48,254 bases of DNA, taken from contig CALMZY010000386.1 of NCBI GenBank assembly GCA_937870865.1, positions 1 through 48,254 on the forward strand, read 5' to 3'. Made by a program: the position numbers and the translations under genes. Shown piece by piece: positions 23,939 through 45,179 of this stretch (position 1 is the first letter of the stretch; each line of letters opens with the position of its first letter). The notes below the pieces were generated by a model. The model was not told the origin of the DNA and made no database searches. It saw nothing but the letters and a program-made list of their open reading frames with translations. The stretch is from an uncultured Lentisphaerota bacterium. Lineage in GTDB: Bacteria > Verrucomicrobiota > Kiritimatiellia > CAIQIC01 > JAGNIJ01.

Positions 23939-23942
23939 ACAC

Positions 23943-24081: not shown

Positions 24082-24282
24082 ATGAGAAGTGACGATGTAA
24101 GGCCATCTCGCGAGTGTGGTGCCGACTGGGTCAAGACCACGCGGCTTGTCCGGCAGTGGGAGGACATGAAGCGTGAGATTTCGCTTCATAAGTACTACGA
24201 AAGCCAGAAGGCCGGCCATGACATCGGTTGGGAACGCGCCACGGTGGATTGGATGATCCGATTCGGCAGCAAGAAGTCGTAG
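24082..24282 (+). CDS. Hypothetical small protein
   Basis: ORF with the C-terminal motif KYYESQKAGHDIGWERATVDWMIRFG. The start is uncertain (GTG 24070, ATG 24082 or ATG 24166). I cannot name a family. Confidence 0.3.
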   Translation: MRSDDVRPSRECGADWVKTTRLVRQWEDMKREISLHKYYESQKAGHDIGWERATVDWMIRFGSKKS

Positions 24283-24507
24283 ACCCTCTATTCCTTATCC
24301 CAAGGAAGAACTACCGCGGAGACACAGAGAACAGACGGACTTTATCGCAAAAACCGTTTCCCTTTTTGCGCCTTTCGCGTATTTCGTAGTTTCCTCTTCC
24401 GCAGGCTCGTTTTCGGCCTACTTTCAACTCGCCTTGCATCTCTTCCCCCGGTAGCCTGATGTGTATAAGCCGTTGCGATGCTTCGATCAGTACATCAGGG
24501 GGAGGTT

Positions 24508-25131: not shown

Positions 25132-25145
25132 CAGGAGTGGCGCTT

Positions 25146-27599
25146 GTGAAAAACCTTACTGTCCGCATGGTTCTTCCGGTTTTGTTCGCGCTTGCGGCCG
25201 CATTCCTGCCGGGCGGGTGCGCGACGACGGACGAGGCCTACTTTCTGAACACCGAGTCCGAGGCCAACGTGTTCGTCGCGCCGGTGCCGTGCCCGATCTG
25301 GAAAGTGGCGGTCATGCCGTTCAAGGGGCCCACGGACCTGATCGGTTCGTCCGTGTCCGACATGTTCGTCACGGAAATGCTGCGCGCGGGCCGCTATGAA
25401 CTGGTCGAACGCAGCCAGATGTCCAAGGTCCTCAGCGAGTCCGAGCTCTCGCTGGCCGGCCTGTCCCTGTCCAAGGCGACGGAGGTGGGCAGCATGCTCG
25501 GCGCGGACGGCGTGATCATCGGAACGGTGGACGAATACAGCACGGTGGCCTACCGCGGCGCGGCGTTTCCCGTGGTCGGGATCACCGTCCGGCTGATCGA
25601 CTGCAAGAGCGGCAAGGTGATGTGGAGCGTGGACCTCGCCAAGCGGGCGGACAGCAAGAGCGCCACGCTTTCGGAACACGCACGCGATGTCGTTCATGAA
25701 ATGACCGCGGGGCTCTACAAGAAGTGGGGTGTCCAGCGGAAGGTTCCGCGGCCCGTCGAGACGGCCTCGTCGGCCCGCGAGGAATCCCCGGACGCCGTCG
25801 TCGGAATGACCGCGGAACCCGAGCAACCCCCGAAACCGCCGTGCGGCCTGAAACTTTCCGACATGGGCCTGCGCGAAGTCACGATCACGTGGACCGCTCC
25901 GTCCGACAACGCCAGCCAGTTCAAGATCGAGCGAGCGGACAAGGCCGACGGGCCCTTCACGCTTCTGGGCAAGACCTCGGCGGGCCGCGGGGAATACGTG
26001 GACGACGAGGGCCTGGAGGACAGCACCGTCTATTACTACCGCGTGACCGCGGTCTCCGCGAGCGGGCTGCAAAGCGCGCCGTCGGACGTGGTCGAAAGCA
26101 TGACCGCGCCGCCGCCGGAGCCGCCGGCGGACATCCAGGCCGTGCCGGACGGTTCGAGGGCCGTCAAGGTGACGTGGGGCGCGCCGCCGTCGGAAGGCGT
26201 GACCCGGTACATCGTCGAACGCAACGATCCCGACGCGCCGGACCGCTTTATTAAGAGGGGCGAGGTGAAAGGTCTCGTTTTCCGCGAGGGCGGGACGGCG
26301 CAGTCCGATCTGCGGGACGAAACGAAGTACCTCTACCGCGTCACGTCGGTCAACCGCGTCGGGTCCGTCGGCCAGCCGTCGCCGCCGGTCGAGGTCGTCA
26401 CCGAGCCGCCGCCCGCGCCGGTCGCGGACCTGCAGGCCGTCAGCAGCGAGGTGCGATGCGTGCCCCTTTCGTGGAGCCCGAATCCGGAACCGGATATCGT
26501 CCGCTACGACATCTACCGGAAGGACAACGAGGAGACGCCCACCGCCAAAATCGCCTCCGTCAAGGCGCGCGAGACGAAGTACCTCGACGGCGGGCGCGAT
26601 CCGGGCAACCTGGAGGACGATCACACTTACCAGTACGCCATTGTTGCGGTCGACGCCGTGACCGCCGAGAGCAAGAGCTGCTCCCCCGTGTCGGCGACCA
26701 CGCGCAAACCGCCGCCGGTGGTCGAAGGCGTTGCCGCCACGTTCGGGCGGCCGCGGGAGGTGCCCCTGGCGTGGACGGTTTCGCCCGACGAAAAAGTGAC
26801 CGGCTATGACGTCCTTCGCGCCGCGCCCGACGGCGGGGACTTCGCCGTGATTGCGACGGTGAACGGCCGCGAGACCGCCGGATATGTCGACAAGGGCGGC
26901 GCGAAACCGGCGGCCCTTGGCCGGCTTCTCGACGGCACGGAGTACCGGTACCGGCTGGTCGCGTTCAACACCGCGCGCGCCGTGTCCGAGCCCTCCGAAA
27001 TTGTTTCCGCCACGACGAAGTTTGCGCCGGTCGCGCCGATCGAACTGGGCGCGACGACCAACCGGCCCAAGTCGGTGGAGATTTCGTGGAGCCCGAACGC
27101 CGAGATGGACATCAAGGAATACGTGGTCGAATCGGCAGCCGCCGGCACGGCCCGTTTCCGGGAGATCGCGCGCGTGCCTGCGCCGGAAGACGGACAGCCT
27201 TCCGCGACGGAATCGAAACTGCCGGATGGCGCGGGCCGCCTCTACCGCGTCAAGGCGATCGACACGGACACGCTCGAAAGCCCGTGGACGGAGCCGGTTG
27301 AAGGCGCGACCAAGCCTCTTCCTCTCCCGCCGACGGACTTGAAAGCGGAGTTGAACGAGGGCGGCGCCCTGCTGACGTGGACCCCGCCGGATCAGCCGGA
27401 TATCCAGGAGTACAGGATCTGGAAGAAGGGGTTTGTCATGGCCGATCTCTTCACGACGACCGAAGCGTCGGAGTACACATTGTCGTCAGCGGACATTGGA
27501 AAGAAACTGGTGGTCATGGTCAGCGCGGTGGACCAGGACGGCCTGGAAAGCGGGCGCACGGCGCCCGTGGAAATCCGGCCGCCTGCCCCGGAAAAATAA
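25146..27599 (+). CDS. Lipoprotein with an N-terminal CsgG/HfaB/LpoB-like module and six FN3-like repeats (locus gene 2)
   Basis: Lipobox LPGGC. KVAVMPFKGPTDLIGSSVSDMFVTEMLRAGRYELVERSQMSKVLSESELSLAGL...VGSMLGADGVIIGTV fits the CsgG-family signature as I recall it. Six ~95-aa units follow, with W/Y..Y.Y.V.A patterns (e.g. VTITWTAPSDNASQFKIERAD...STVYYYRVTAVSASG). I prefer start GTG 25146, 8 nt after AGGAG; the track uses 25137. Confidence 0.75.
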   Translation: MKNLTVRMVLPVLFALAAAFLPGGCATTDEAYFLNTESEANVFVAPVPCPIWKVAVMPFKGPTDLIGSSVSDMFVTEMLRAGRYELVERSQMSKVLSESELSLAGLSLSKATEVGSMLGADGVIIGTVDEYSTVAYRGAAFPVVGITVRLIDCKSGKVMWSVDLAKRADSKSATLSEHARDVVHEMTAGLYKKWGVQRKVPRPVETASSAREESPDAVVGMTAEPEQPPKPPCGLKLSDMGLREVTITWTAPSDNASQFKIERADKADGPFTLLGKTSAGRGEYVDDEGLEDSTVYYYRVTAVSASGLQSAPSDVVESMTAPPPEPPADIQAVPDGSRAVKVTWGAPPSEGVTRYIVERNDPDAPDRFIKRGEVKGLVFREGGTAQSDLRDETKYLYRVTSVNRVGSVGQPSPPVEVVTEPPPAPVADLQAVSSEVRCVPLSWSPNPEPDIVRYDIYRKDNEETPTAKIASVKARETKYLDGGRDPGNLEDDHTYQYAIVAVDAVTAESKSCSPVSATTRKPPPVVEGVAATFGRPREVPLAWTVSPDEKVTGYDVLRAAPDGGDFAVIATVNGRETAGYVDKGGAKPAALGRLLDGTEYRYRLVAFNTARAVSEPSEIVSATTKFAPVAPIELGATTNRPKSVEISWSPNAEMDIKEYVVESAAAGTARFREIARVPAPEDGQPSATESKLPDGAGRLYRVKAIDTDTLESPWTEPVEGATKPLPLPPTDLKAELNEGGALLTWTPPDQPDIQEYRIWKKGFVMADLFTTTEASEYTLSSADIGKKLVVMVSAVDQDGLESGRTAPVEIRPPAPEK

Positions 27600-27662: not shown

Positions 27663-28235
27663 ATGAAGCTTCTTCGCGGCGTGTTTTGTCTCCTCTGGAT
27701 CCTGTTTCTTCTCCTGAACTCCAGCGCGTTCGGACAGAACCGGAGCCTGGCCGACGCGTTCGTCGGCGGGGCGTCGGCCGGCAAGCCGGCGCCCGCGAGC
27801 ACACCCGCCGGCCATCGCGCGGCGGTCGAACAGCTGTTCGAGCAGATCGACATGCCGGAGACGGTGAACCGCAGCGTCATGCAGATTTCGGCCGCGCTCA
27901 CGGGCGCCGCGGCGGAGGATGGCGCGTACAAGGATGCGGTGGACGCGTACGTGCGCAAGTACGTGAGCTGGGAGGCGCTGAAGGACGAGATCGTCGCGCT
28001 GTACATGAAGAAGTTCACGGAGAAGGAGGTCTTGGACCTCATCGCGTTCTACAACACGGCGACGGGGCGTAAGCTCCTGGCGGAAACGCCGGACATCGGC
28101 GCGACGATCTCCGTCACCGTGCACAATCGACTCGTCGATCACAGTCCCGAGCTCAAGCAGATGATGATGGAAACCGACTTCAAGGCGTTCAAGGATGCGC
28201 TCAGCGACGACACCCCGCCCGAGGATCAACGCTAG
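27663..28235 (+). CDS. Exported DUF2059-like protein (locus gene 3)
   Basis: Signal peptide MKLLRGVFCLLWILFLLLNSSAFG. LYMKKFTEKEVLDLIAFYNTATGRKLL fits the DUF2059 core motif (fT..El..li.FY.sp.GkK) from memory. Confidence 0.65.
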   Translation: MKLLRGVFCLLWILFLLLNSSAFGQNRSLADAFVGGASAGKPAPASTPAGHRAAVEQLFEQIDMPETVNRSVMQISAALTGAAAEDGAYKDAVDAYVRKYVSWEALKDEIVALYMKKFTEKEVLDLIAFYNTATGRKLLAETPDIGATISVTVHNRLVDHSPELKQMMMETDFKAFKDALSDDTPPEDQR

Positions 28236-28244
28236 GATTTCTCC

Positions 28245-31200
28245 ATGAAGCACATTTCTTCAAAGGGAACGGTGTGTTGCCGGGTGGGGTGGGCCGGACT
28301 GCTGATCGTCCTGCTCGGTGTCCTGTCCGCCGCGGGCGAGTGGAGCCAGGCCGTCAAGGACGCCGCCGCGCGGGTGGCCGCCGGGAACGCGTCGCCCGCG
28401 GACCTTCAAACCGTCTTCGAGTACAACCAGTCGATCAATCGAATGGGCGCGCGCGGCACGCAGAACGGCGGCATCAACAACCAGGCGTACCAAGGCAGCC
28501 AGAAAGCATTCACGGCGAAGAATAACTCCATCATCCAGGATTCCGCTACGGAGTGCGGGCTCGACGTGGAGATCAAGGAGCCGAAGAGCGATCCCCTGGC
28601 GGGCACGGACACCGACGTCAACGTGAAGACGAAGGACGGCAAGCCCCTGACTCACGAGCAGTGGAAGAGGCTGAACGACACATACAACCGCAAGGTCAAC
28701 GAGTACCTGAAGAAGCCGCCCGGCAGCAAGGTCAACACGGGCACCGACCTGATGCCCGACCCGAAGACCACGAACCCGCAGGAGTTCCAGAAGATCTGCA
28801 ACGACATCAACAACCAGGGCGGCACGACGTACAAGGATCCCGCCGCCGCGCGGGTCGAGGGGGCGATGGCCAAGGGCGAGCCGATCGTCATCAACGAAGT
28901 CGGCAGCTACGTCAAGGAATTGCAGGGCCAGGCGCAGTCGCATTTCGACGCAGCGGCGAAGACCACCGCCGAGGCGAACAACCTGGCCAAGGTCTACGGC
29001 GAAAACAGCCCGCAGGTGCAGGATTTGCGCGCGAAGGCCCAGATCGAAAATTCGCAGGGCGCGAAGTACATCGAGAAGATCGAGAACGTCGGCGCGAAGA
29101 TTCGCGGCGAGGCGGGCGTGGCGGCCGCGCCGGGAACGGAGTCGCCGTCCGGCAAGCTGACCGAGACGTTGAAGAACAATCGCGGCGCCGACACCATCGC
29201 GCAATCGGAGCAGATCGGCCCGCTGTCCAAGAACGCTCTTAACAACGCCACGCAGAGCACGATTGAGGACCTGGCGAGGGTGGCGAACGCGAACCCCAAG
29301 GCCGCACCGGCCTGCCAGCAGGCCATTGCCGACAGCCTGCGCGACCTGCCGATGAGCCAGAAGGGCCAGGCGATGGAGATGATCAAGACGAAGTACGGCA
29401 ATGATTTCGCGAAAGGCGTGGCGAAGGCCGCGCAGGGCCCAACGGGCGGCGCGACCGTCATGAAGGGATTTGAGAAGGTCATGAAAGTCCTCGGCCCCGG
29501 CCTGATGATTTACGACGGATATCATCGAATCACCGGCGCCTTGAACGCGCCGGACGAGGCGAAGACGTATGTCGCCGGCAAGGCCATCGGCGGTTTCGTC
29601 GGTGGCCTGGGGCTGGGCGCGGCGGTGGGGCTGGGCGTGGCGGGAATTCTGGGCGCGCCCGTGACGGCGGTCGGCGCGGCCGTGGTCATCGGTACAGGGA
29701 TCATCGCCGGCGGCCTCGGCTACGGGGTCGGCGATTACGCCGGCAGTTCGCTTGCCGGCTGGATGCTCGAGGGCGTGCGGCCGCGCGACCAGAGCGAGTA
29801 CGATGCGCTGGCGGCCAAGGGCCTGCTGGACGGCAGCAAGGACATCTACGGCCAACTCATCGCCGCCGGCGTGGATCCGGCCACCGCCGCCGCCGCCGCG
29901 GCCGCGTACAAGAACGGCGACGTGAAGACCTTCCGCGACATCCTCGCGAGCGTCCGCGACAAGCTGGTCAAGGGCGCGAAGAAGATGCCGCCGCGCCGGT
30001 TCAACGAACTGGCGACCAATGAAGTCGAGGTGCTGCTCGACTGTCTGTGCTCGAAGTCGCTGGGCGCCAATCCGTGGGTTGCGCAGGGCTATAACACGGA
30101 GATCCCCAAGGACGCCGATCCGAAGGCCCATTCCTGCGGGAGCCTGGCCAATGGTCCGTGCATGGCGTCGGGCTTCGTCTGCTGGCGCAGTTTCATCAAG
30201 TGGGGGAATCCGGGCATCTCGGATTGCCTCGCGTCGTTCAACCTTCCGACCAACTCCGGCTACGTGCGCGGGGAGATCGATGCGAAGTACCAGAAGCCCT
30301 ACGAGAAGCCCTTCAAGATCAAGGTGATCGCGGACCCGGTCGAGTTTTGCCCGAATGACAAGATCAACGTGAAGATCGTTTGCGAGGGCGGTCGCGGCGA
30401 CTACGAATACCGCTACTACGCCGGCTGGCCCCTGCAGCGTCCCGCGGATGGTCCGAAGGATGCGTGGACGTCCACGCGGTCGTCCAGCATGACGTTCACC
30501 GCGCCGGATCTCAGGCGCGGCTACTTCGACGGACAGTGGGTCTACACGCGGCCGGCCGAATACTATCCGACGTACGTCCAGGTGTGGGCCAGGAGCACCA
30601 CGTTCGATCAGGTCAGCGGCCAGGAGGTGCCGACGGAAATCTGCCAGTCCGTCGGCCTTCGCATGCGTTCGCATGCCGAATGCGAGAAGCTCCATCCGCC
30701 TCCGCCGCCGGAGACCAAGAAGAAGCCGCCGACGAAACCGGTGACCGTTTCGAAACCGACAACGGGGACGAAGACCTCCGCGCCGGAGAGCACGGGAACC
30801 GCTCCGCCGCCGACCACGCCCGGCAAGTATGTTCCTCCGGCGACCACGACACCCGGGGGAAAGAAGACAACTTCCGGCGGAAAGGGCGGACCCGCGAGCG
30901 GTTCAACTCCGCAGCCGCCCCCGGCGCCGCCTTCGCAACCTCCGCCGGCGGGAGGCTCGGGAGCGGGTGGTTCTCAAGGCCCGCAGGAGCCGGGAAGCTC
31001 TCCGAAGCCGCCGTCCTCGGGTGACTCGGATGCCGGCGGGAGCGCCGGAGATTCAACCGTCGACTGTTCCTTCGGCGGCGGTGCGACGGCCATGGACAAT
31101 GGTCCGTTGAATATGTGGGTTGAGGTGCCATCGAACCAGCGCGTGCGGGTGACGATCAAGGGATCGGATGGCTTCTCGCAGACGCTCGAAGGTGTCGGAC

Positions 31201-32309
31201 GGGTGGACATCACGCGTCCGCGTAATCCGAGCGGCACGGACACGATCACGATGGAGAACCTGGACCGGCCGGGCTGCATGGACCAGCAGGTCGCCCAGTA
31301 CGACACAAACGGAATTCCGGGCGGCATGCCGACCTCGGTCAACACGAATGCGCCGGGTTTGGAGGGCAGCGAGGCCGGAATCGGCGCGCTGCCGCCGGAC
31401 GGAACGATCCTTTCGGATCCCGAGGGCGCGCTCGGCGGGTTTATCGGGAACAAGACCGCGAAGGGCGGCGAGAGGACGGACCAGGGATTTGAAACCATCA
31501 AGGTCACCACGGACTCGCAGGCGAAAGAGACCTCCAGCGATCTGGACGTCGCCGCCGCGGGTCATGTGGTGGATGTCGCCGGCGCCGACGCGCAGGACAC
31601 GAAGGATGCGACGGCGAAAGGCACCGCGAAGAGCGATCAGGAAACGAGTTGGGGAAAGACGCTGGGCGATTCCATTCAGAAGGGATTCGAGGATGGAGTG
31701 TCGGCCGCGGCGACGGCGTTCGGTTCGGCCGCGGCGGACAAGGCCGCGGGATCGATTTTCGGCGGAACGAAAGACAAGTCCGATGGAGAAGAGGGGTCGT
31801 CTGCAGGCGAAGGCGAACAGGTCGCCGGCGGTACAACGTCGGCCGGCGGATCATCGTCCGGTGCTGCCGTTGGGGGAAGCAGTGGCGGCGGCGGAGGTGG
31901 CGGGGGGAGCGGCAGTGGCGGCGGCGCGCCTGTGACAACGAGCCTTCCGATTTCTCCCACGAATGTTGTGGGGGGTGGGCAGGGCGGAACGGTGACCTGC
32001 GAATTCTGCGGATACACGACCGTGGTGCCGCCCGGCGGTCAGCCGGCCCCGAATTGCCCGGTTTGCGGTTGCGGCAGAGACAAGGCCCTTGTGACTTGCT
32101 CCGTGTGCGGTTACCGATGGCTGGTGCCTGTGGCGGACGGACCGCCGACGGGCGGATGTCCGAAGTGCGGGAATGGCGGGCCGGTGACGCCGGACGAAAC
32201 GGGCGGCGCGGGCGCGATCGCTCCGCCGGCTGTCGGAGTGGGTACACCGGCAACGGGTGTGCCGATGACTCCCGTGACGCCCGGCGCGGGAGTGACACCC
32301 ATCCGGTAG
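28245..32309 (+). CDS. Giant exported low-complexity protein 1 (1354 aa; locus gene 4)
   Basis: ATG lies 9 nt after the previous stop. In order: an N-terminal hydrophobic signal or anchor; a charged A/K/E/Q-rich region; a glycine-zipper hydrophobic block (nt 29575-29760); a Cys-rich globular region (nt 30031-30695); a Pro/Thr/Gly linker; the conserved DSWG-type module (31647-31766); a Gly/Ser run; and two CxxC...CxxC motifs (31995-32175). Confidence 0.8.
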   Translation: MKHISSKGTVCCRVGWAGLLIVLLGVLSAAGEWSQAVKDAAARVAAGNASPADLQTVFEYNQSINRMGARGTQNGGINNQAYQGSQKAFTAKNNSIIQDSATECGLDVEIKEPKSDPLAGTDTDVNVKTKDGKPLTHEQWKRLNDTYNRKVNEYLKKPPGSKVNTGTDLMPDPKTTNPQEFQKICNDINNQGGTTYKDPAAARVEGAMAKGEPIVINEVGSYVKELQGQAQSHFDAAAKTTAEANNLAKVYGENSPQVQDLRAKAQIENSQGAKYIEKIENVGAKIRGEAGVAAAPGTESPSGKLTETLKNNRGADTIAQSEQIGPLSKNALNNATQSTIEDLARVANANPKAAPACQQAIADSLRDLPMSQKGQAMEMIKTKYGNDFAKGVAKAAQGPTGGATVMKGFEKVMKVLGPGLMIYDGYHRITGALNAPDEAKTYVAGKAIGGFVGGLGLGAAVGLGVAGILGAPVTAVGAAVVIGTGIIAGGLGYGVGDYAGSSLAGWMLEGVRPRDQSEYDALAAKGLLDGSKDIYGQLIAAGVDPATAAAAAAAYKNGDVKTFRDILASVRDKLVKGAKKMPPRRFNELATNEVEVLLDCLCSKSLGANPWVAQGYNTEIPKDADPKAHSCGSLANGPCMASGFVCWRSFIKWGNPGISDCLASFNLPTNSGYVRGEIDAKYQKPYEKPFKIKVIADPVEFCPNDKINVKIVCEGGRGDYEYRYYAGWPLQRPADGPKDAWTSTRSSSMTFTAPDLRRGYFDGQWVYTRPAEYYPTYVQVWARSTTFDQVSGQEVPTEICQSVGLRMRSHAECEKLHPPPPPETKKKPPTKPVTVSKPTTGTKTSAPESTGTAPPPTTPGKYVPPATTTPGGKKTTSGGKGGPASGSTPQPPPAPPSQPPPAGGSGAGGSQGPQEPGSSPKPPSSGDSDAGGSAGDSTVDCSFGGGATAMDNGPLNMWVEVPSNQRVRVTIKGSDGFSQTLEGVGRVDITRPRNPSGTDTITMENLDRPGCMDQQVAQYDTNGIPGGMPTSVNTNAPGLEGSEAGIGALPPDGTILSDPEGALGGFIGNKTAKGGERTDQGFETIKVTTDSQAKETSSDLDVAAAGHVVDVAGADAQDTKDATAKGTAKSDQETSWGKTLGDSIQKGFEDGVSAAATAFGSAAADKAAGSIFGGTKDKSDGEEGSSAGEGEQVAGGTTSAGGSSSGAAVGGSSGGGGGGGGSGSGGGAPVTTSLPISPTNVVGGGQGGTVTCEFCGYTTVVPPGGQPAPNCPVCGCGRDKALVTCSVCGYRWLVPVADGPPTGGCPKCGNGGPVTPDETGGAGAIAPPAVGVGTPATGVPMTPVTPGAGVTPIR

Positions 32310-32333: not shown

Positions 32334-35300
32334 GTGAAGAGACTTCTTGTGTCTGTGTCTTTCGCGTTGTTCGTTTCTTCGGGTGCGTTCGCGCAGGGCA
32401 ACTTCGGCGACACTCGCATCCCGGAAGACCTTCCTCTCGAGGACTACGGCAAATACTGGGACCAGTACAACCAGGAGATCTCCAAGGCGCAGGCGGAGTA
32501 CAACAAGAGCGTCCAGGACATCAAGAACAGCACGAAGTCGGGCCCCGAACAGCAGGCCAAACTTCAGGAGGCCCAGGGCAAGTACCGCGCGCAGAGCCAG
32601 AAGCTCGCGCGCAACGTCCGTGACCCGATCCATCGCCGCCTGATCCAGGAGGTCAACACGGGCGCGACCGAGGGGGCTGGCGCGGCCAACTCGCAGGTGC
32701 GCCAGACCAGCGGGACCGACGTGAACAGCGACGGCTTTCGCGGGCACGAGGGCGACCTGGACGGCGGCGGCGGAGCCCGGACGGCCGACAAGGTGACGCA
32801 AACCCTCAAGAAGATGAAGATCAACGTGCCCGTGGAGACCTACGGCGGCACGATGGAAGTCAAGGGCGGGATGAACCTGACGATCAACAAGGAGGGCCCG
32901 CTCGGCAAGGTCGGGTCGGCGGCGCACCAGGCGCAGGTCGGCGTCGACGCCCGCAATCCCGAAACCTACGTGTCCGAATCCATGCAGAAGGGCCAGCCCG
33001 GCCGCGATGCGGTTCGCGTGCAGGATCACATCAAGAAGGGGCTGGACGGCAGTCCGGCGAAGGGCGCGCACAAGTGCGTGGCCGAGGGCTACGTCTCGGA
33101 CGCCCAGCTCCAGGAAATCATGAACAGGAACGGGATCACCGGCAAGACTCCGGACCAGTTCCGCGAGCAGCTTCAGAGTGCAAAGGAGGGCAGAGCGGGG
33201 GTATCCGATGCCGAGGCGGGCAAGTTCAACAAGGCCTGCGACGACATTATGAACACCGCCGAGGCCAACACGACCGCCAAGGCGAATGCGGAAATGGCCG
33301 GTGCGCAGAGGGAGCTGGACGGCTTGAAGGGGAAGACCGATCCGGCGTCCAAGGCCCGCGCGCAGGATCTTCGTAACCAGCTCGCCGATTCGCGCGCGAA
33401 GCTGGGCGAGACGAAGGCCGCCAACACCGAAGTGCGATCCGGACAAAGTTCGTACCACGAGAAGATCGGCAGTCGAACTGAAATGAGCGGCGAGCCGCGC
33501 GTGGCGGAGTCCGGCGGGCCTAAAGCGGCTGAAACGGCCGGTCCGAAGACAGCGGAAGCCGGCGGGCCGAAGATGGGCGAGTCCGGCAGTCCCCGCGTGA
33601 CGGAGTCCGGCGGACCCAAAGCGGTTGAGACAGCCGGCCCGAAGACCGTGGAGTCCGGCGGGCCGAAAGTCGGCGAGGCGGGCACCCCGAAAGCGGGCGG
33701 AACGGCTGCGCCGGAGGCTCCGGGACTGGGCGGCAAGGCGCTCAAGGCGGCCGGCGACGGCATGGAAGTCATTGCGGTGATCAACCAGGCCGGAAAGGTT
33801 CACGAGGGAATCAAGGAAGGCGACATCAACAAGGTGGCGGCGGGGATTGCCGGCGAGGATGCCGCGAAAACCGCGCAGGTGCAGGGCGGCAAGGATTACG
33901 CCGATGCCATGGGCCAGCTTCTCGATGCGAAGACTGCCGAGGCGCAGTCGGCCGCCGAGGGCAAGCTGAAGCGCATGGGCGCGACGCCGGACGAAATCCA
34001 GACGTATCACGACAACTATGACAAGGACCCGGCGGCGGCGCGCGCGGTCGTGCAGGCCGTGAAGGATCGCGGCGGAGTCGACACGAAGCCCCAGCAGGGG
34101 TTGGAAGGTGCCGGGCCGGAGGAGAGCAGTTGGAACGCGAAGGATCAGCTCGTGGACGGCGCAAAGCAGGCCGGCAGTTACGCTCACGCCGCCGGCGACA
34201 TGGTCTCGATGGGCGGGCTGAGCCACGTCGAGAATGCCGTGTCCGATGTTTACGACATTACCAAGAACGCCGATGCGGTGGACGATTCGACCAAGGCGGA
34301 ACAGCTCAGCAAGTTGTACACGGACCTGCGCATGCGCGGCGCCACTCCGGACGAGGCCAATCAGGCGCTTCAGGATTACTACAAAAATCCGAAACCGTTC
34401 CGCGATCTGGTCCAGGATCTGCGCGAGCGCGATCCGACCCAGTTCGACGAAGCGATCGGCCGGCACGCGAAGAATCTCGGGAATCGGGACAACGTCGATA
34501 TAAATCCCGACGACACCGCCGCCGACCGCGCGGCGGCATTGGGCAAACACCTGAAGCAGGGGCTGGTCGACGATCCGTCGAAAGCGGTGGGAGGCATCAT
34601 CGGCGACATCACGGGCGATAACCAGGAAACGCAGGGCATCCTCGATGCCGCGGGGAAACGCGACAAGGAAGGCGCCGCGATACGCGGCGGCATCTACAAG
34701 GATCTGATCGACCGGGGCGTCCCCGAATCGGAGGCCCGCGCGGCGGTCAACGACCTCGCTCGCGGCAATCCCGGCACCCTGCGCGGCGTGGTCAAGGACC
34801 TGCAGGCCAAGGACGCGCCCGCCAAAGACAAGCCGGAACCTGAAGCGGAAACGGCGGAGGCGAAGCCGGATGCCGAACCCGCCGCGGCGAAACCGGATAC
34901 GGAGGCCGTGACGGACACGGGCGAGCCGGCTCCGTGGGGCGCGCGCAACGACGACGGTGAGGCGGTCGATGCCGGGGCGTATGAGAACGGGGACCGGATC
35001 ATCAACAAGGACGGCGTCGAGTTTGTGAACCAGGATGGCCAGTGGGTCGAGACCGGCGACAACCGCGGCGCGTATGACGCCGACTCTGACAAGGGCGGTA
35101 TCGAGGCGGTTCCGACGCCTTCGATTCCCGACCTGGGCCTGGACGAGAACGGCAACGCGGCGGATCAGCAGACGGCCGGTGACGAGTCGGTGGCGGACGA
35201 CGAGGCCGGCGATGACGAAACGGCCGAAGAGGACGTGGCTGATGCGGACGAAGACTCCGGCGACGACGAGGCGGAAGACGGGGAGGTCTCGGACGCGGAT

Positions 35301-36367
35301 GGCGACGGCGAGGATGATTCCGAGTCGGATGATCTGGCCGAGGGCGAAGCGGATATGCCGGACATGGAAGAGGACGAAGAAGGGTCCGACGATGAGGGCG
35401 GTGTTCTCGACGGATACGCCGGTGATCGCGAGGAGGATGCGGGCCATCGCGGGAAGACCGGCTTAAACACGATGGGCAAGGTCATGCAGATCGCGAGAGC
35501 CTCCACGGCAGGAGATCAGGAGGTGGCTAACGCCAACCGGACCATCAGTAATGCGGGTGAAGATTTCAACACGACCCGGAATCAAGCTGCGTCCGATGCG
35601 GCCGCCGGCGATCGCGCGGACAGTTGGGGCACGAAAATGGGCGATTCCATTCAGCAGGGCTTGGAACAGGGTCTCGGGCAGGCCGCTACGGCGGTCGGCT
35701 CCGCCGCGGCCGACCAGGTGACCGGGCAGGTTTTCGACGGCGGAAAGAAGGATGAGCCGGAGAGCGGCGGATCGAGCGAGGGCAGTGGCGAGGGAGAAAG
35801 CGGCGGATCCACATCGGGCGCCACTATTTCCGGCGGGGGCGGTTCCGGGGGTGGAGGTGGATCGGGGGGGGGGGGGGGGGGGTGGGGGTGGGGGGGGGGG
35901 GGGGGGGGGGGGCGGTTCCGACGTCTATGCCGCCTCCGTCCGGTGGGGCTGGTGGAATTGGCGTAAGTGGAGAGAGTGGTGGCGGTCTCCCTGAAAGCGG
36001 CGGCGTTGGATCTTCGCCGCTTCCTTCGCCGACGTCCTCGCCGTCGGGTGGAAATGTCAAGCTGGTGTGTATGAAGTGCTCCTACGAGTTCATGCCGCCG
36101 GCCGATGGTTCAACAACGTGCCCGCAGTGCGGCGGCGCCACGATACCGCAGACGATCTGGGATCCGTCGCAGGCGCCCGGTGCCACAGCGACAACAACGC
36201 CGACTCCCGCGCCAACCCCTGCGCCGGCTCCGGCACCCGAGCCTCCGAAAGGCTGGAAATGCCCCGTGTGCGGGAGTTATGACACCGTCTTTTCCAACAC
36301 GCATCCCCTGTATGGAGATGTGTATCACTGCAACGGGTGCGGCGGCGCCGTGCATAATGTCTATTAA
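32334..36367 (+). CDS. Giant exported low-complexity protein 2 (locus gene 5), with the reading frame broken inside the poly-G tract (track ORFs 32334-35966 and 35882-36367)
   Basis: GTG start lies 6 nt after GAGG. Signal peptide MKRLLVSVSFALFVSSGAFA. It has the same C-terminal architecture as protein 1, but only if one G is added to (or two removed from) the tract at 35864-35912. That change would give about 1344 aa. Confidence 0.7.
33490..33700 (+). repeat. In-frame tandem repeat in giant gene 2 (two 32-aa units built from GGPK/AGPK 8-mers)
   Basis: PRVAESGGPKAAETAGPKTAEAGGPKMGESGS is followed by PRVTESGGPKAVETAGPKTVESGGPKVGEAGT. Confidence 0.8.
35864..35912 (+). repeat. Near-homopolymeric G tract (G19-T-G5-T-G23) inside giant gene 2
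   Basis: Counted directly: 35864-35882 are G, 35883 is T, 35884-35888 are G, 35889 is T, 35890-35912 are G. Confidence 0.95.
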
Positions 36368-36511
36368 GCACGGCTAAATCGTAGCCCATTCATTTATAAT
36401 GATTTATGAAGTGAACGCGAGTCCGGGCTCGGGCCGTTGTTATTGGCTGGACAGTTCAGCTTTTCGGAGTAGGAAGGGGTTTGGGGCGTGGCGGTAGCGG
36501 AGGGTTCAGCC

Positions 36512-39500
36512 ATGAAATTTCGGAATCCATTCTATTCGGTCCAAGCGCGGATGATGCTTCTTCTCGTCGCGCTTGCGTGGCCGGGCAACCAGGTTTTTTC
36601 TGCGGAAGAAGAATCCGCGAGATCGGTTGCCGAGTCGCGTGCGGCGCAGGCGCAGGAGCTGAGCAACCTTCGCGAGGAATACGCCGCAAAAGCCCGCCAG
36701 CCGGGCGCCGACCAGGCGAAGCTGTTGTCCGAGTACAAGGCCCGGTACGAAGCCATCCGGCAGAAGTTTCTCGCCGCGGATACGCGCGCGGCTGAAATCC
36801 AGGACATCAAGGATCGTTTCCGGGGCGAGATCGAGAATACCGGAAGCAATCCGAAGGACGTGCGGGCGGACGTTGATCTGGCGGCAAGGAATGAGCAAGC
36901 CGCGAGGACTTTGGCGGAAGAATGGCGCGCGAAGGGCGACGTTGTCGTGGAGACCCCCACGAAGTATGTGAACCAGACGCGCGATGCCACGCTCTGGCGG
37001 CCCGAAACGCCTGAAATCAAGCAGGCCAAGGTGGAGGACCTCGATGCTTTTTCCACCGAAGGGGGACAGGAGGGTACGGGCAACAAGTCCGCCGTTCGCG
37101 ACGAACTCGGCTGGCAGATCGACAACGAAAAGAAGCTCCTGCACGCCCAGAACGACGGCGATCTCAAGACGGGCGCCAAGAGCGTGGACAAAGCCGCCGA
37201 GGCCGCCGGCCGGAAGGCGCAGAATCCCGAATTCTACAGGAAGGCCGAAGTCCTGCGCCAGTACGGCGATGACGTCCAGGCCGGCATCACCGACCTCGCC
37301 GACACTCCCGAAGTCCGCAAGCAGAAGCTCGATGCCTGGAGGGAAGAAGCGCGCATTGAGATGGATAAGTCCCGCGCCGTGGCCGAACGCCGCAGCGCCC
37401 TGCGCGACGATGTCCGGGCGGATTTCCAGAGAGCGCTCGAGAATGCGACGCCCGCCGATCCCGCCAACCGTGACGCCAACTTCCGCGACAGCGCCGCCAT
37501 CGGCGACGAGCGCGTCCGCGTGCGCGAGTCGAATCTCGCCGCCGAACGCATGAACGAGACGCTGCGCGCGGAGAGCGGCGGAAAAACGACGATTGAGGCG
37601 GGCGGCAGAGGTTCGACGGTTCGCGAAGGAACGACGACGCGCATCGGAGAGCCAGCGCCAGATGTGGTCACCACCATCAAGCCGGGGGAGGCAGGTCCGA
37701 TCGCGCGCAACACGACGATCGGCCAGCCGTCGCCGCAGGCGGCGGAAAGCGTGGCGGGGTCCGTTCCGGATTCGTCCGGCGTCGGCGACGTGGTGCCCGT
37801 AGAACCGCCGGGCTCTCTTTCCTCTTCGGCCGGCTCATCCGGCGGACGGCCCAGCCTCGATCAGTTCACGCCGAAGATCGATCCGTCGCAGGTGCAGATG
37901 CCTGGGCGGATCGAGCGAACAACCCGTTACGTTTCGGGCGATCCTGCCTTGGCCGATCTCGCCGAGCCCGGCGTCAAGCACGTGCAGGCCCCTCCGCCGA
38001 ATCCGGAACTGGCGGAGCTTGTCCGGAACATTCCATCACAGCCCTCGAAGCCGGCGGCTCCCGTGGATGTTCAAATGCCGGGTCCCGTTGAGCGGCCGAC
38101 GCGCTACGTCTCGGGCGATCCGGCGCTGGCCGATCTCGCCGAGCCCGGCGTCAAGCACGTGCAGGCCCCTCCGCCGGACGCGGACCTCGCAGCGCTCGCG
38201 CGGGGCGACTACAAGCCGCCTGCCCGGTCAGGAGGCGCGAACGCGGGCGAGCAGACGGTTCTGAGTTCGGGAAGCCAGGGCCCCAATCTTGGCGAAGGCA
38301 CGCCGACCACGGTGAAGGGAACGGAAACGAGGCTCAGTTCCGGCAGCACGGGTCCGAACATGGGCGAAGGTACGCCGACGAAACTTCAGCCTGCTGACAC
38401 GAGACTCAGTGCGGGAAGCAGCGGTGCCAACCTGGGAGAGGGAAGTCAGACCCGGCTCAGCGGTGTGCAGCCGGAAGCGACTACGGCCATCGAGCCCGGC
38501 GGTTCGGGGCCGAGGGTGGCTGAAGGATTAACGACGCGCGCCGGAGGGCCAGCCGCCAACACCGCGATCGAACCGGGCGGCTCAGGCCCGCAAGTGCGTT
38601 CGGGCACGAAGACGGCTCTGGGCGAAGCGTCCGTTTCTTCCGCCGGCGGAGTCAACCGGCCCAGCCTTCAGGATTTCGCGCCGCAGATCGATCCCTCGCA
38701 GGTGCAGATGCCGGGGCGCGCGGAGCCGACAGTGAAATACGTGAAGGGGGATCCCGTTCTCGCGGATTTGGCCGAGCCGGGAGTGAGGCACTTGCAGGGC
38801 GGGCCGGCTCCGGGCGATCCGACACTGGCGGACCTGCTCAAGGGAGGCAGCAAGCCTCGCGGCGGTGGGGCGGGCGCTGCGGCAGACACGGTGATCGGCG
38901 GAGAAGGGTCCGGCGGCGCGCGTGCGGGCGAGGGAACCCCGACGAAAGTCGGGCAGGCGCAGACGACGATCAACCCTGAAGGTCCGGGCGGGCCGAACAG
39001 GGGCGAGGGGAGCACCACCAAGGTTCGCGAAGGCGCCGGGTCGACGGAAGCAGCCGGCCCCAAGGCGGAAGGTCCCAGGATTCGCAAGATTCTAAACGTG
39101 GCGAACGAAGTAGTCGGCGGCATGGCCGTCGCCGGCCAGCTTGGCGAAGCCGGCACGAAACAGGCCGGCGATGTAATTGACGAGAACAGGGATTTCACGG
39201 TGGGCGATGCGGGCGAGGCCCTGGTGGAAGGCGCCGGCATTCCGAGCATGTACCAGATGGGCCGCGACATCTCGGCCGAAGAGCAGATCCGGGTGCAGCA
39301 GGGGCAGCAGGGGCAAGCCGCCGCGCTGGGCCGCACGTACGTGCGGATGGCTGACAAAATGGCCCATGAAATGATCAACGATCCGGTTGACCGTGCCATC
39401 GCCGAGGAGGAAGCGCGCGCGGCGGCGGCCGGCGAGGAGCCCGACTACACGCGCAGCACATACAATGCCGCAACGGACGTCGGCGGCAAGTTCACGGGGC

Positions 39501-42500
39501 TTGGAGCGCTCGCGAACGCGGTCGAGGAAACGACGACGTGGGACGAGCGCGCCGACTACGCGGCCCAGCGCGGCGCGATGGACCAGTTTGTGGACGAGAA
39601 CGTGGGCCGCAGTTCCACCCGCATCCGCAACCTGCAGGGCGAGATCGAACAGCTGAGCCTCACCGGCGACATGAACGATCCCGACACTGCCGCGCAGATC
39701 GAGCAGCGCATCGCGCAGATGGACGCCGAGTACGACAAGCTGAACCGCGTCTCGGGCATGGCCCAGCGCACGCTCGGGCAGGAGTCGGCCCAATCCGTCG
39801 ACCAGCAGATCGCCAGCCTGCCGCGCCGGGATGATTTTACGGGTTACATCGACGAGAACGTCACTGCGCGGGGCGGGAAGATCGATTCGACCCGGCCCGC
39901 GGGCACGGAGCGCGCCACGGCGCCGGGTTCGGACACCGGAGCGCAGGCGGACCTCGATATCGCGCCCGCGGATGAGCAGAGACTGGTGAACTCGACAGCC
40001 TCCGCCGGGCTGACGACGGTCGGATCGCCGCAGCAGGCCGGCGCGCCTTCGCTGACGGACGCGCTTCGCGGCATCGGCGACCGGATCAAGAACGAGGCGG
40101 AGAACCAGGTCATCAAGGAGGTCACGAGCAATCCTCAGCCGTACGTGCGCGGCGCCCTGCAGGGGCTTAACGCGGAGAGCGACGACTCGCGGCGCATCCG
40201 GCAGATGTACAATTCCGCGCCCGAGGGCAGCGACGACCGCAGGCAGTTGAACGGACTCTTCGAACAGCTTCGTGACGCGCGGACACCGGAGCAGCGCGCC
40301 GCGGCCCAGGCGGAAATCGAACGCTGGTCCGACAAGTACCCGCCCCCGGCGACAGCGCCGGCGACGGTGCCCGTCCTGCCGACCAAGGACGATCTCCTGA
40401 CCGATCGCAACCAGAGCGCCGACAGGGTCCGGCAGCACAACGAATATATCAACCAGCTCCAGCAGAACGGCGGCAGCAAAGAGGATATTGAGTCGGCTCA
40501 GTGGATCCGCGACCAGGAGCAGCAGCGTCTGGAGGGGTATGACCGGAGCTTGAGCAGCGGCGAATTCCAGCAACCTGCCGCGCCCGCGGAATCGTCCGCG
40601 CCGCCTTCGCCCGCGACGACTGCGTCCACACTCGCGCCGGCCGGCGCGGCGCCCGAAGAGGTGCCGGCCGAACCGGAGGAGCCGAGGTCGGCGAGCGGCT
40701 ACACCGCGGGCCAGCTGCAGAACGACAACTACAACATGCAGAACCTCGCGGACGATGCGCAGAACCGGATCAACAACCTGCAGCAACAAATGGCCGACAG
40801 CCACAACAGCACTGAACGGCGCGATCTCCAGGAACAGATCGACAAGGAGCGCGCGGAGCTGAACAGCCTCCAGGAGCGCATTGACGGGAACAATGCCGAG
40901 CTGACGGAGATGGGCGCCGAAACGGGAGACGGCGTCAAGCCGCCGCCGTCGCCGTGGACCGAGGAGCAGTTGCAGAACGACAACTGGAATATGCAGAACC
41001 TGGCCGAGGGCACCCAGAACCGGATCGACAACCTCGAGCAGCAACTTGCGGCGAGCCGTGACGGCTCCGAGCGCAGGGATCTTCAGGAGCAGATCGACAA
41101 GGAGCGCGCGGAACTGAACAACCTCCAGGAGCGCATGGATGGGAACGACGCCGCCCTGACCGCGATGGGCGCGGAGCCGGGCACCGGCGAGCAGGTCGAG
41201 ATCGGGCCATGGTCGCAGGAGCAATTGGAGAACGACAACTGGAACATGCAGAACCTTGCGGAGCGCACGCAAGGACGGATCGACGATCTTGAGCAGAGGA
41301 TCAGGGACAGCCGCGACGGTTCCGAGCGCCGGGATCTTCAGGAACAGCTGGATCGAGAGCGGGCAGAACTGGGCGGGCTTCAAGAGAGAATCGACGGGAA
41401 CAACGAGCAGTTGGGCGCGATGGCGGCCGCCGGCGGTGCCGGAGAGGAAGAGCAGGGGGACACCGAGGGGCAGGACGACAGCTCCGAGTCCGCCGCCGAA
41501 TCGGCCGGTTCGTCCGTGTTCGACGGCGCCGGCGCCGACTCTGCCGATGCCACAGATGAAATGTGGACAGAGGACGAGCCTGCCGGCGACGAAGAATCGG
41601 ATGTTGATGACGAGCCGGACGCCGATGGTGAGCAACTGGCCTCCGATGAACCCGAGTACGGCGAGGGCGACGACGGGTACGATTCCGGGGATGTGGATCC
41701 AAACACCGAAGGGGGCATCCAGCAATTTGCCGAAGCCACGGAGAGCCGTCTGGGCGCGGACGGGAGCGCCGAGATGAATATCATCAGGGTATCGTCGGAC
41801 GGGCGCATTGCCGAGACTCGCAGCGATGCCGAGGCAAACAACGCGGACAACATCCGGGATCAGGGCGGCGCGGAAGCCCAGCAGACCGTCAACGAAGCCG
41901 CGACGGAAGTCGCCGCCGGCGATCGCCAGGACAGTTGGGGCAATGTGATTGGGAATTCCGCGCAGACGGGCTTTGAACAAGGCGGCCAGGCGCTCGGTAC
42001 TGCGCTGGGAGGGTCCGGCGCGGATCATGTATCGGGCCAGGCCTTCGGGTCGAAACCGTCTTCCGGTTCGGATTCCGGCAGTGGTGAAGGCAATGAAAAC
42101 GGCGACGACGCGGGCCAGGGCGATGCCGTCGCAACGGGTTCGTCTCCCGCCGTCCCGCCGCCCGCGCCCCCTCCGGTCAGCATGCCCCCGCCGTCTTCTC
42201 CTTCGCCGGCGCCGGCCGCGCCTTCGACGCCTTCGTCCGGCTACGGTAATTGTCCCAGATGCAATATTCCTTTTATCCAGTGTTCGGATGGCGCCTGGCG
42301 ATGTCCGAATTCGGCATGGGTGAGGCAGAATCCCGGCGGGGCACGGCCACCCGCAGCGCCCGCTCCCGCTCCGACGCCGGTGGTGGTGCCGAGTCCGACC
42401 TATGGGCCGCTGTTGCAGCAGACGCAACCGAACCTGACGCCTGTCCAACTGAACGCGGCTGGCGAGCCGATGTTCGCGCCGGGGCAGAATTTCGGGAACA

Positions 42501-42535
42501 CGTACCCGGTTCCCTACGGAGGTCCCACCCGGTAA
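36512..42535 (+). CDS. Giant exported low-complexity protein 3 (2007 aa from ATG 36512; locus gene 6)
   Basis: GGAGGG RBS. Signal peptide MKFRNPFYSVQARMMLLLVALAWPGNQVFSA. Several internal repeat families and an acidic tract precede the conserved DSWG-type module (41930-42050), a Pro-rich linker and a CxxC...C...C motif (42247-42310). Confidence 0.8.
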   Translation: MKFRNPFYSVQARMMLLLVALAWPGNQVFSAEEESARSVAESRAAQAQELSNLREEYAAKARQPGADQAKLLSEYKARYEAIRQKFLAADTRAAEIQDIKDRFRGEIENTGSNPKDVRADVDLAARNEQAARTLAEEWRAKGDVVVETPTKYVNQTRDATLWRPETPEIKQAKVEDLDAFSTEGGQEGTGNKSAVRDELGWQIDNEKKLLHAQNDGDLKTGAKSVDKAAEAAGRKAQNPEFYRKAEVLRQYGDDVQAGITDLADTPEVRKQKLDAWREEARIEMDKSRAVAERRSALRDDVRADFQRALENATPADPANRDANFRDSAAIGDERVRVRESNLAAERMNETLRAESGGKTTIEAGGRGSTVREGTTTRIGEPAPDVVTTIKPGEAGPIARNTTIGQPSPQAAESVAGSVPDSSGVGDVVPVEPPGSLSSSAGSSGGRPSLDQFTPKIDPSQVQMPGRIERTTRYVSGDPALADLAEPGVKHVQAPPPNPELAELVRNIPSQPSKPAAPVDVQMPGPVERPTRYVSGDPALADLAEPGVKHVQAPPPDADLAALARGDYKPPARSGGANAGEQTVLSSGSQGPNLGEGTPTTVKGTETRLSSGSTGPNMGEGTPTKLQPADTRLSAGSSGANLGEGSQTRLSGVQPEATTAIEPGGSGPRVAEGLTTRAGGPAANTAIEPGGSGPQVRSGTKTALGEASVSSAGGVNRPSLQDFAPQIDPSQVQMPGRAEPTVKYVKGDPVLADLAEPGVRHLQGGPAPGDPTLADLLKGGSKPRGGGAGAAADTVIGGEGSGGARAGEGTPTKVGQAQTTINPEGPGGPNRGEGSTTKVREGAGSTEAAGPKAEGPRIRKILNVANEVVGGMAVAGQLGEAGTKQAGDVIDENRDFTVGDAGEALVEGAGIPSMYQMGRDISAEEQIRVQQGQQGQAAALGRTYVRMADKMAHEMINDPVDRAIAEEEARAAAAGEEPDYTRSTYNAATDVGGKFTGLGALANAVEETTTWDERADYAAQRGAMDQFVDENVGRSSTRIRNLQGEIEQLSLTGDMNDPDTAAQIEQRIAQMDAEYDKLNRVSGMAQRTLGQESAQSVDQQIASLPRRDDFTGYIDENVTARGGKIDSTRPAGTERATAPGSDTGAQADLDIAPADEQRLVNSTASAGLTTVGSPQQAGAPSLTDALRGIGDRIKNEAENQVIKEVTSNPQPYVRGALQGLNAESDDSRRIRQMYNSAPEGSDDRRQLNGLFEQLRDARTPEQRAAAQAEIERWSDKYPPPATAPATVPVLPTKDDLLTDRNQSADRVRQHNEYINQLQQNGGSKEDIESAQWIRDQEQQRLEGYDRSLSSGEFQQPAAPAESSAPPSPATTASTLAPAGAAPEEVPAEPEEPRSASGYTAGQLQNDNYNMQNLADDAQNRINNLQQQMADSHNSTERRDLQEQIDKERAELNSLQERIDGNNAELTEMGAETGDGVKPPPSPWTEEQLQNDNWNMQNLAEGTQNRIDNLEQQLAASRDGSERRDLQEQIDKERAELNNLQERMDGNDAALTAMGAEPGTGEQVEIGPWSQEQLENDNWNMQNLAERTQGRIDDLEQRIRDSRDGSERRDLQEQLDRERAELGGLQERIDGNNEQLGAMAAAGGAGEEEQGDTEGQDDSSESAAESAGSSVFDGAGADSADATDEMWTEDEPAGDEESDVDDEPDADGEQLASDEPEYGEGDDGYDSGDVDPNTEGGIQQFAEATESRLGADGSAEMNIIRVSSDGRIAETRSDAEANNADNIRDQGGAEAQQTVNEAATEVAAGDRQDSWGNVIGNSAQTGFEQGGQALGTALGGSGADHVSGQAFGSKPSSGSDSGSGEGNENGDDAGQGDAVATGSSPAVPPPAPPPVSMPPPSSPSPAPAAPSTPSSGYGNCPRCNIPFIQCSDGAWRCPNSAWVRQNPGGARPPAAPAPAPTPVVVPSPTYGPLLQQTQPNLTPVQLNAAGEPMFAPGQNFGNTYPVPYGGPTR
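37895..38176 (+). repeat. 177-nt-period direct repeat in giant gene 3, including a 49-nt perfect copy
   Basis: ggccgatctcgccgagcccggcgtcaagcacgtgcaggcccctccgccg occurs at 37951-37999 and again at 38128-38176. The units encode QMPG..ER.TRYVSGDPALADLAEPGVKHVQAPPP. A diverged third unit lies near 38690-38800. Confidence 0.9.
40712..41440 (+). repeat. About 2.9 tandem copies of a 255-nt (85-aa) unit in giant gene 3
   Basis: Unit starts are at 40712, 40967 and 41222. Consensus: QLQNDNWNMQNLA..TQNRIDNLEQQ...SRDGSERRDLQEQIDKERAELN.LQERIDGN...L..MGAE. Confidence 0.9.
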
Positions 42536-45060: not shown

Positions 45061-45179
45061 GAGCCGGTTCGCAATCCCATGGAGGCCATGACGCGAGTTG
45101 TTGTGCGGAAGCAAGGAAGGACCTCTGCGGGCCTTTTCATTGTACAGCCGCCTTGTCCGGCGCACATCGATCAGCCATC

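Follow-up and report, generated by a model that had tools for sequence, protein, structure and literature searches.

Predicted exported metal knuckles at the end of a shared tail on giant signal-peptide proteins of an uncultured Lentisphaerota bacterium

What is a cysteine motif of a typically intracellular kind doing at the far end of a protein that begins with a secretion signal? The question is raised by contig CALMZY010000386.1 of an uncultured Lentisphaerota bacterium (GenBank assembly GCA_937870865.1), whose positions 1 to 48,254 on the forward strand form the window analyzed here. A sequence-only reading of this window had pointed to Cys4 zinc-ribbon-like motifs at the extreme C-termini of three proteins, P1, P2 and P3, and had proposed disulfide knots, signal anchors with a cytoplasmic bulk, or a retained plug or handle. 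Zinc ribbons are typically cytoplasmic modules. We found that the Cys motifs, here called knuckles, make up one of the two parts of a conserved tail, the other being a 75-residue module with an invariant S-W-G (the SWG module). Going beyond the earlier reading, this tail defines a protein family and belongs to a conserved gene cluster. We give an even chance to the explanation that these would be metal knuckles that are exported and cap a docking tail.

P1, P2 and P3 are tandem genes, all on the + strand, with the following parts (lengths in amino acids, aa; bit scores against the module profile).

28245..32309, + strand: P1, 1354 aa, with orthologues P0002-P0004
28245..28337, + strand: signal-peptide-like start of P1 by heuristic criteria, with a basic n-region, a 17-residue core and SAA-GE
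29583..29732, + strand: internal Gly-rich hydrophobic block of P1 (aa 447-496, about 50 residues, central Pro)
31572..31796, + strand: SWG module of P1 (75 aa, alignment A1, 96.7 bits), predicted helix-turn-helix
31998..32168, + strand: two Cys4 ribbon units of P1, the site named in the sequence-only reading
32334..36367, + strand: P2, one gene in two frames in this assembly (32334-35966 and 35882-36367)
35547..35771, + strand: SWG module of P2 (alignment A1, 94.7 bits)
35864..35912, + strand: G19-T-G5-T-G23 tract, which codes for the poly-Gly linker of P2 and is its frameshift site
36068..36340, + strand: two Cys4 ribbon units of P2, CxxC-x13-CxxC and CxxC-x19-CxxC
36488..42535, + strand: P3, 2015 aa from GTG, with a likely start at the ATG at 36512 (2007 aa); orthologue P0006
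41858..42082, + strand: SWG module of P3 (alignment A1, 90.2 bits)
42251..42304, + strand: Cys4 knuckle of P3, CxxC-x6-C-x6-C, holding the sole Cys of P3, with a spacing that recurs in four family tails

The Cys motifs that had been quoted are all present where they were reported. In P1 the Cys codons at 31998, 32007, 32055, 32064, (32070), 32097, 32106, 32157 and 32166 build two CxxC-x15/16-CxxC units. Those of P2, in the frame of the open reading frame (ORF) 35882-36367, lie at 36068, 36077, 36119, 36128, 36260, 36269, 36329 and 36338 and also form two units, and those of P3 lie at 42251, 42260, 42281 and 42302. The clustering exceeds chance: all four Cys of P3, in a protein of about 2007 residues, fall inside 18 residues (rough chance 3e-6), and P2 has eight Cys in its last 100 residues vs two in its 1182-residue in-frame body. 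The pattern is also conserved. The eight ribbon Cys of P1 are invariant across ten P1-type tails of 27-88% identity, and the patterns of P2 and P3 are retained in their orthologues, P0005 and P0006. By the zinc-ribbon definition of two CxxC pairs 10-25 residues apart, P1 and P2 carry ribbons and P3 a compact variant.

The reading frame of P2 is broken in the window, and the earlier observation that its tail lies in a shifted frame holds and can be traced to the poly-G tract, inside which the two frames join. The orthologue P0005 is a single intact ORF of 1542 aa with both end motifs of P2. Comparing tract lengths at the contig level, with 35850-35922 masked, we found 41 letters for the tract region in contigs of three runs from three studies, vs 73 in the window; the tract was left unbridged in a fourth run, X14. 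The 32-letter difference places the P2 tail in frame with the P2 body in the contigs of those three runs. P2 is therefore one gene, given the intact orthologue and the in-frame contigs, and its frameshift in the window is an assembly error or a slippage variant. The window's tract length breaks the frame downstream of the SWG module and just upstream of the knuckles, so that slippage here would cost P2 its knuckles only.

The SWG module lies 170-200 residues ahead of the C-terminus in P1, P2 and P3 and is followed in each by a linker rich in Gly, Ser, Pro and acidic residues and then by the Cys knuckles. Ahead of the module the proteins differ. P1 has a signal peptide, an N-domain, a Gly-zipper hydrophobic block and a Cys-containing middle, and closes with a Pro-rich end after its two ribbons; P3 has a signal peptide and a repeat-rich coiled-coil body. 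Neither Pfam nor NCBIfam names the tail of P1-P3. Among 1.84 billion representatives, a profile of the module matched 141 clusters (E ≤0.001), of which 69 reached ≤1e-10. These clusters and two members from an orthologue search form a set of 143 members apart from the window's P1; 130 have a complete tail (at least 100 residues after the module) and 98 are N-complete (at least 400 residues before it). Of the 98 N-complete members, 91 are signal-peptide-like. Judged by sequence, the SWG-module tail defines a previously unnamed protein family, in which the module stands 110-290 residues before the C-terminus of a protein with a signal-peptide body, and to which P1, P2 and P3 belong.

Knuckles are the usual end of this tail. 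At least three Cys occur in 110 of the 130 complete tails, and Cys makes up 3.75% of tails vs 0.35% of bodies. The pattern CxxC...CxxC occurs 159 times in the 130 tails, vs 1.3 in composition-preserving shuffles. The four-Cys unit is the commonest (72 units), followed by a three-Cys form, C-x13-CxxC (22 units), and the number and type of knuckles differ widely, from one to four per tail. Some Cys-free tails finish instead in a small beta-rich domain, which suggests that the end piece acts as a compact knob rather than as one specific fold. There are two such end-domain types of about 80-90 residues, one set being P0032, P0039, P0073, P0077, P0102 and P0104 and the other P0036 and P0049; one type is a candidate likeness of a mid-protein stretch of P1, at about aa 940-1010.

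The bodies, by comparison, are mostly dark. Pfam families at 1e-5 were absent from 47 of 48 scanned members, so the bodies yield no functional lead; the remaining one has RHS repeats. This protein, P0024 (1714 aa), places an RHS-repeat/YD-shell body ahead of a module-plus-knuckle tail. We found no description of exported zinc ribbons or of the SWG-tail family in the literature searched. The ESM Atlas gave no usable match with the P1 tail, and a related-locus search with the single P1 tail gave one locus, L023. An analogy between the helix-W-G-helix module and WXG100/type VII substrates was considered and dropped, since those substrates lack signal peptides and showed no sequence match.

What fold the tail adopts was approached by prediction. 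In AlphaFold2 (AF2) models of the ten P1-type tails, the SWG module forms helices at 5-24 and 27-63 with a per-residue confidence (pLDDT) of 50-60, the linker is disordered, and four short strands span the P1 ribbon pair at pLDDT 75-84. Weak sequence matches of the ribbons in the PDB were to the aRF1 zinc ribbon (3ir9, E 0.006), to rubredoxins (E 0.017 and up) and to the Rpb9 C-ribbon (E 0.098), and the P2 units are weakly like rubredoxin and the Rpb9 C-ribbon. A wide structural search with the tail model returned only long helices (Z 5.3-5.6) and was uninformative on the ribbons. The knuckles resemble known zinc ribbons and rubredoxin-type knuckles (Zn_ribbon_8, DUF7129, the TFIIS/Rpb9 C-ribbon, the aRF1 insert 3ir9) in the spacing of their two CxxC(G) motifs (13-23 residues), in short beta-hairpins as a prediction, in the His that some copies have at a ligand position, and in weak matches confined to modules of this kind. 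They differ in their place, at the distal C-terminal end of giant low-complexity proteins that begin with Sec-type signal peptides, in scoring below all curated cut-offs and in commonly taking the three-Cys form.

Whether such knuckles would reach the outside of the cytoplasm depends on the N-termini. We called signal peptides with our own heuristics (charge, hydrophobic core, small-x-small motif), and by these P1-P3 have the features of Sec signal peptides: a basic stretch leads into a 10-17-residue hydrophobic core, and a small-x-small site follows, with cleavage-like sites at LSAA-GE (P1), GAFA-QG (P2) and VFSA-EE (P3). On these heuristics, the claim that Cys4 ribbon-like motifs stand behind cleavable-looking signal peptides (SSGAFA-QG and QVFSA-EE had been the examples) is borne out. 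Across the family, the 91 signal-peptide-like members have a hydrophobic core within the first 60 residues, with a median uncharged stretch of 16 residues (interquartile range 14-18). Ahead of the core, 84 of them had a positive net charge; behind it, the charge was negative in 60 members and positive in 18, and in 90 the core was followed by a small-x-small motif. Under the positive-inside rule, such a pattern, positive before the core and mostly negative after it, directs the C-terminal portion to the outside, for cleaved and uncleaved peptides alike. No Tat motif was seen in P1-P3 and a loose twin-arginine pattern in only eight of the 98 N-complete members, so Tat export of a pre-folded, metal-loaded domain is not the rule.

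Beyond the N-terminus, P2 and P3 have no hydrophobic segment, and none was seen in the tails of P1, P2 or P3. The block in P1, which is kept in P0002-P0004, had been thought able to reverse the topology of that protein; its length of about 50 residues and central Pro fit a two-helix hairpin, from which the chain would emerge on the side where it entered. Signal anchors with a cytoplasmic bulk, as had been proposed, are disfavoured by the charge pattern, by the lack of any other hydrophobic segment in P2 and P3 and by neighbouring genes of exported type, and a cytoplasmic bulk appears unlikely for P1-P3.

The placement is also special to this family, in keeping with the earlier remark that it would be unusual. 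The genome to which the window belongs (a 2.95-Mb assembly of 388 contigs, 76% complete) holds only three module copies, those of P1-P3. A crude gene call gave 2151 ORFs, of which 491 were signal-peptide-like without further membrane segments. CxxC-x8-25-CxxC occurred in two of these 491, both with an N-terminal ribbon before an anchor, and in other membrane proteins with a ribbon it lay mostly N-terminal of the first membrane segment. No other signal-peptide proteins with C-terminal ribbons were found in this genome besides P1-P3; we therefore dropped exported ribbons as a general habit of the organism and regard C-terminal ribbons on exported proteins as special to the family. A further protein of this genome, of 493 aa (contig C219, 3622-5103), starts with two ribbons, carries a single membrane segment and has a DnaJ-like CxxCxGxG cluster at its C-terminal end; its Cys knuckles may sit on both sides of the membrane.

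Outside the cytoplasm, Cys pairs could form disulfides or hold a metal. In the genome of the window and relatives 94-97% complete, DsbA was found in none of six genomes, and DsbB, VKOR and Thioredoxin_4 each in none of five; the same models gave matches in 3-9 of 14 control genomes. Bacteria that form disulfides favour even Cys numbers in their exported proteins (PMC2823432). Among the 491 signal-peptide-like ORFs, 0, 1, 2, 3, 4 and 5 Cys were counted in 94, 93, 66, 50, 47 and 35, a steady fall with no even-number bias. The genomes examined gave no sign of a disulfide-forming pathway, and that of the window (76% complete) showed no even-Cys bias of the kind expected where exported domains are disulfide-stabilized. 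The tails have an odd Cys count in 51 of 130 cases, and HxxC...CxxC, with His at the first ligand position, occurs 12 times vs 0.5 expected. Two small signal-peptide cluster proteins of another species, L022:7864-9531 and L022:9581-10795 (minus), carry CxxH-x13/14-CxxC up to four times, in units that by their pattern are putative Cys3His knuckles. In combination these data favour metal knuckles, with metal binding as a prediction, over the disulfide knots that had been suggested.

Which partners would such a tail have? The three genes lie within a cluster whose order is retained in five other species of three families: a small lipoprotein, then a CsgG/PelC-like lipoprotein with fibronectin-III repeats, sometimes a DUF2059 protein, one to several tail-bearing proteins, a second CsgG/PelC-like lipoprotein, the 43210-44040 protein and the 44053-45060 protein. 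All of the conserved neighbours carry signal peptides or lipoboxes. In the window the neighbouring genes are as follows.

25137..27599, + strand: 820-aa lipoprotein that combines a CsgG/PelC-like domain with fibronectin-III repeats, conserved cluster member
27663..28235, + strand: DUF2059 protein with a signal peptide, present in two of seven related loci
42619..43203, + strand: second CsgG/LpoB/PelC-like lipoprotein, cluster member
43210..44040, + strand: signal-peptide protein with a CsgG/GNA1162/PelC/FlgT-like fold, the third such fold in the cluster
44053..45060, + strand: accessory signal-peptide protein whose last 53 residues (44896-45054) are module-like, without knuckles
45153..46091, + strand: envelope protein carrying HExxH, weakly matched to peptidase MA (E 0.002)

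The 43210-44040 protein has 54-68% identity to homologues in 16 related species of other genera and 90% in a same-genus genome. Its model (pLDDT 78) has two alpha/beta domains and matches the CsgG, GNA1162, HpaA, PelC, FlgT, LptE and LpoB folds at E 1.7e-6 to 5e-4. Among 41 relatives, the module was found in 13, the protein in 19 and both in 12. The one module-only relative is 66% complete. Seven relatives have the protein only, and one of these, G003, has a diverged module without the Trp but with ribbons. The end of the accessory 44053-45060 protein aligns to module positions 13-65 at 14.1 bits (NSW...IF) and is kept in two homologues of other species that reach it; the aligned sequence of a third homologue is shorter. 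The HExxH gene, which has an NEGLAEY-like motif downstream of HExxH, was unmatched in the related loci examined, though it was in the query set.

A four-chain complex prediction of the tail with three cluster proteins scored 0.32, vs 0.00 for the best control, a result graded as weak support. Of 157 solved complexes, 116 reached the mark used, as did 2 of 215 mismatches; at a score of ≤0.60, just 18 of the 157 reached it, together with both mismatches. The runs shared at least 30% of contacts, the partners had pLDDT 46-49, and replacing the accessory 44053-45060 protein brought the score to 0.00. The prediction hints that the tail may meet that protein.

From these results we infer export, metal binding, docking and a role of the knuckles as a knob, along the following lines. 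P1, P2 and P3 would be Sec-exported envelope proteins of one family. Their tails would open with the SWG module, 75 residues in a helix-turn-helix, continue in a long Gly/Ser/Pro/acidic linker that is disordered, and close with a small compact domain, which in about 85% of members would consist of one to four zinc-ribbon/rubredoxin-type Cys4 knuckles or Cys3/Cys3His variants. The chain would pass the inner membrane unfolded, and the knuckles would then fold outside the cytoplasm around a bound metal, most probably zinc. Such chemistry is feasible since enzymes that make disulfides in the periplasm seem to be missing from the lineage. The tail would most likely be the fixed end of a long flexible exported protein. 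Its SWG module would pair with the module-like end of the 44053-45060 protein, near the ring-type proteins of CsgG/PelC/FlgT fold, and the knuckles would form a compact terminal knob serving as a second contact or a stopper. The retained handle or plug of the earlier reading may fit this anatomy.

A more specific and unlikely version, which lies partly within the docking-tail explanation, casts the knuckles as a stopper whose action depends on metal, part of a novel envelope apparatus for retention or export. The giant disordered proteins would thread N-terminus first through or around CsgG/PelC/FlgT-fold rings, and the tail would hold each protein at the cell, with its SWG module packed into a bundle with the accessory protein and its zinc knuckles folded in the periplasm into a stopper unable to follow. 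In that case metal and redox state would govern retention, and slippage at the P2 poly-G tract could switch the stopper off with the module kept.

Parts of this arrangement recall known systems. Three cluster proteins share a fold or Pfam family with CsgG of curli, PelC of Pel and FlgT. No curlin repeats were matched in the Pfam scan of P1-P3, and no CsgE/F or PelB-like partner was recognized among the window ORFs scanned; in place of amyloid subunits or a polysaccharide, the cargo here would consist of giant acidic proteins. The retention module of LapA-type RTX adhesins is an N-terminal plug that a periplasmic protease releases, on a protein that leaves by type 1 secretion and has no signal peptide. 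By analogy only, it too is a small folded end domain that keeps the end of a giant threaded protein periplasmic, with a protease gene nearby; it differs in being N-terminal, in using type 1 secretion and in having no sequence likeness to the SWG tail. Exported proteins are also sorted or anchored by C-terminal tags, such as the C-terminal domain (CTD) of the type IX secretion system (T9SS), PEP-CTERM, LPXTG and similar elements. With these the SWG tail shares a conserved C-terminal position on signal-peptide proteins with unrelated bodies, restriction to one lineage and a dedicated gene cluster. Unlike them, it has neither a terminal membrane helix with a basic tail nor a T9SS-type beta-sandwich, being a helical module with putative metal knuckles and no sortase-like enzyme in sight; PEP-CTERM, LPXTG and T9SS CTD-type models gave no match in the Pfam and NCBIfam scans of P1-P3.

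Most of the weight not given to the docking tail is shared by four alternatives, and in the first of these the module and knuckles would guide the giants to an outer-membrane route with ring-type lipoproteins and then be cut off, for example by the HExxH protein, so that the mature protein would lack knuckles. A constant tail on variable, mostly dark bodies, a long disordered linker open to proteases, the HExxH envelope protein itself and the conserved gene cluster all speak for such a signal. We nevertheless think it unlikely: the cluster yielded neither a channel protein nor an energy source, the HExxH gene was unmatched in the related loci in which it was sought, no conserved processing site was seen, and knuckles so variable in number and type suit a generic knob better than a specific signal. 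The knuckles might instead serve the metal itself, as a buffer or sensor for zinc or some other envelope metal, on a giant scaffold. Cys4 and Cys3His sites are plausible ligands, yet one to four sites per 1000-2000 residues are few, some members replace them with a Cys-free beta-rich domain and the cluster has no metal transporter, which makes this role very improbable.

The other two alternatives dispense with an exported metal site. It is established that exported Cys pairs are disulfide bonded in most bacteria (PMC2823432), and the knuckles could be mini-domains oxidized outside the cell without metal; the commonest tail count of eight Cys (28/130), the four Cys of another 16/130 and the wastewater among the habitats would agree. 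This is improbable in view of the missing Dsb-type families, the unbiased Cys numbers, the odd counts, the exchange of ligand Cys for His, and a spacing and CxxCG signature of the metal-knuckle type. Alternatively, the tail or the entire bulk would be cytoplasmic, because the knuckles fold before translocation ends or because the N-terminal anchor stays uncleaved. The usual location of zinc ribbons, the N-terminal position of most membrane-protein ribbons in the same genome and the hydrophobicity of some N-termini point this way. Against it stand the outward-directing charge pattern, the lack of a membrane segment in P2 and P3 that could hold the chain across the membrane, the established harm of a chain jammed in the Sec channel and the exported type of all conserved cluster partners, and we consider it a shade more improbable than disulfides.

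Several results weigh against exported metal knuckles on a docking tail. The ribbons fall below every Pfam and NCBIfam cut-off: the best Pfam match is DUF7129 (E 0.00088, 19.4 bits vs a cut-off of 30), and Zn_ribbon_8 scores 10.5-13.6 vs 34.4. Foldseek gave no match to the tail model at E ≤0.001 (best 0.063), the top non-significant rows being zinc modules of PolD, MCM and ribosomal proteins and rubredoxin, and the mean pLDDT for the entire P1-type tail is only 54. The 22 three-Cys units show no obvious fourth ligand. Fewer than three Cys occur in 20 of the 130 complete tails and none in 11, so knuckles are dispensable to the family. By a crude scale, a 19-residue window is anchor-grade hydrophobic in 36 of the 91 N-termini. 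The Dsb absence covers four Pfam models in 5-6 genomes, one of them 76% complete, and another oxidase is possible; the wastewater and sediment habitat could bring exposure to oxygen. No outer-membrane channel was identified in the cluster. The complex prediction used four chains, unlike its calibration, named no interface and gave weak support. None of the RNA runs held the locus stretch.

If zinc ribbons do stand at the end of Sec-exported giants, in a lineage where disulfide-forming enzymes appear to be missing, metal knuckles would be able to serve as small folded domains of the bacterial envelope. The shared tail unites 141 otherwise unannotated protein clusters with a conserved set of neighbouring genes for ring-type lipoproteins in Kiritimatiellia-like bacteria of wastewater and sediments, and tail, accessory protein and rings together give a concrete handle on a possible new system for anchoring or export.

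Nearly all of the family falls within a single class of Verrucomicrobiota. All genomes used were uncultured assemblies; the module was found in 14 of 401 sampled from this phylum, 13 of the same class and one elsewhere. The locus stretch was present in 19 runs of nine studies, from wastewater, sediment and bioreactor metagenomes. Two further features of the window lie upstream of the cluster. The stretch 21900-24450, about 2.5 kb in length, has a G+C of 0.53, vs 0.60-0.68 elsewhere in the window, and contains only ORFs of <150 aa and no Rfam family match. At 804-995, a 6S RNA (RF00013, 66.3 bits) lies between the end of pheT and an MgsA-type ATPase gene.

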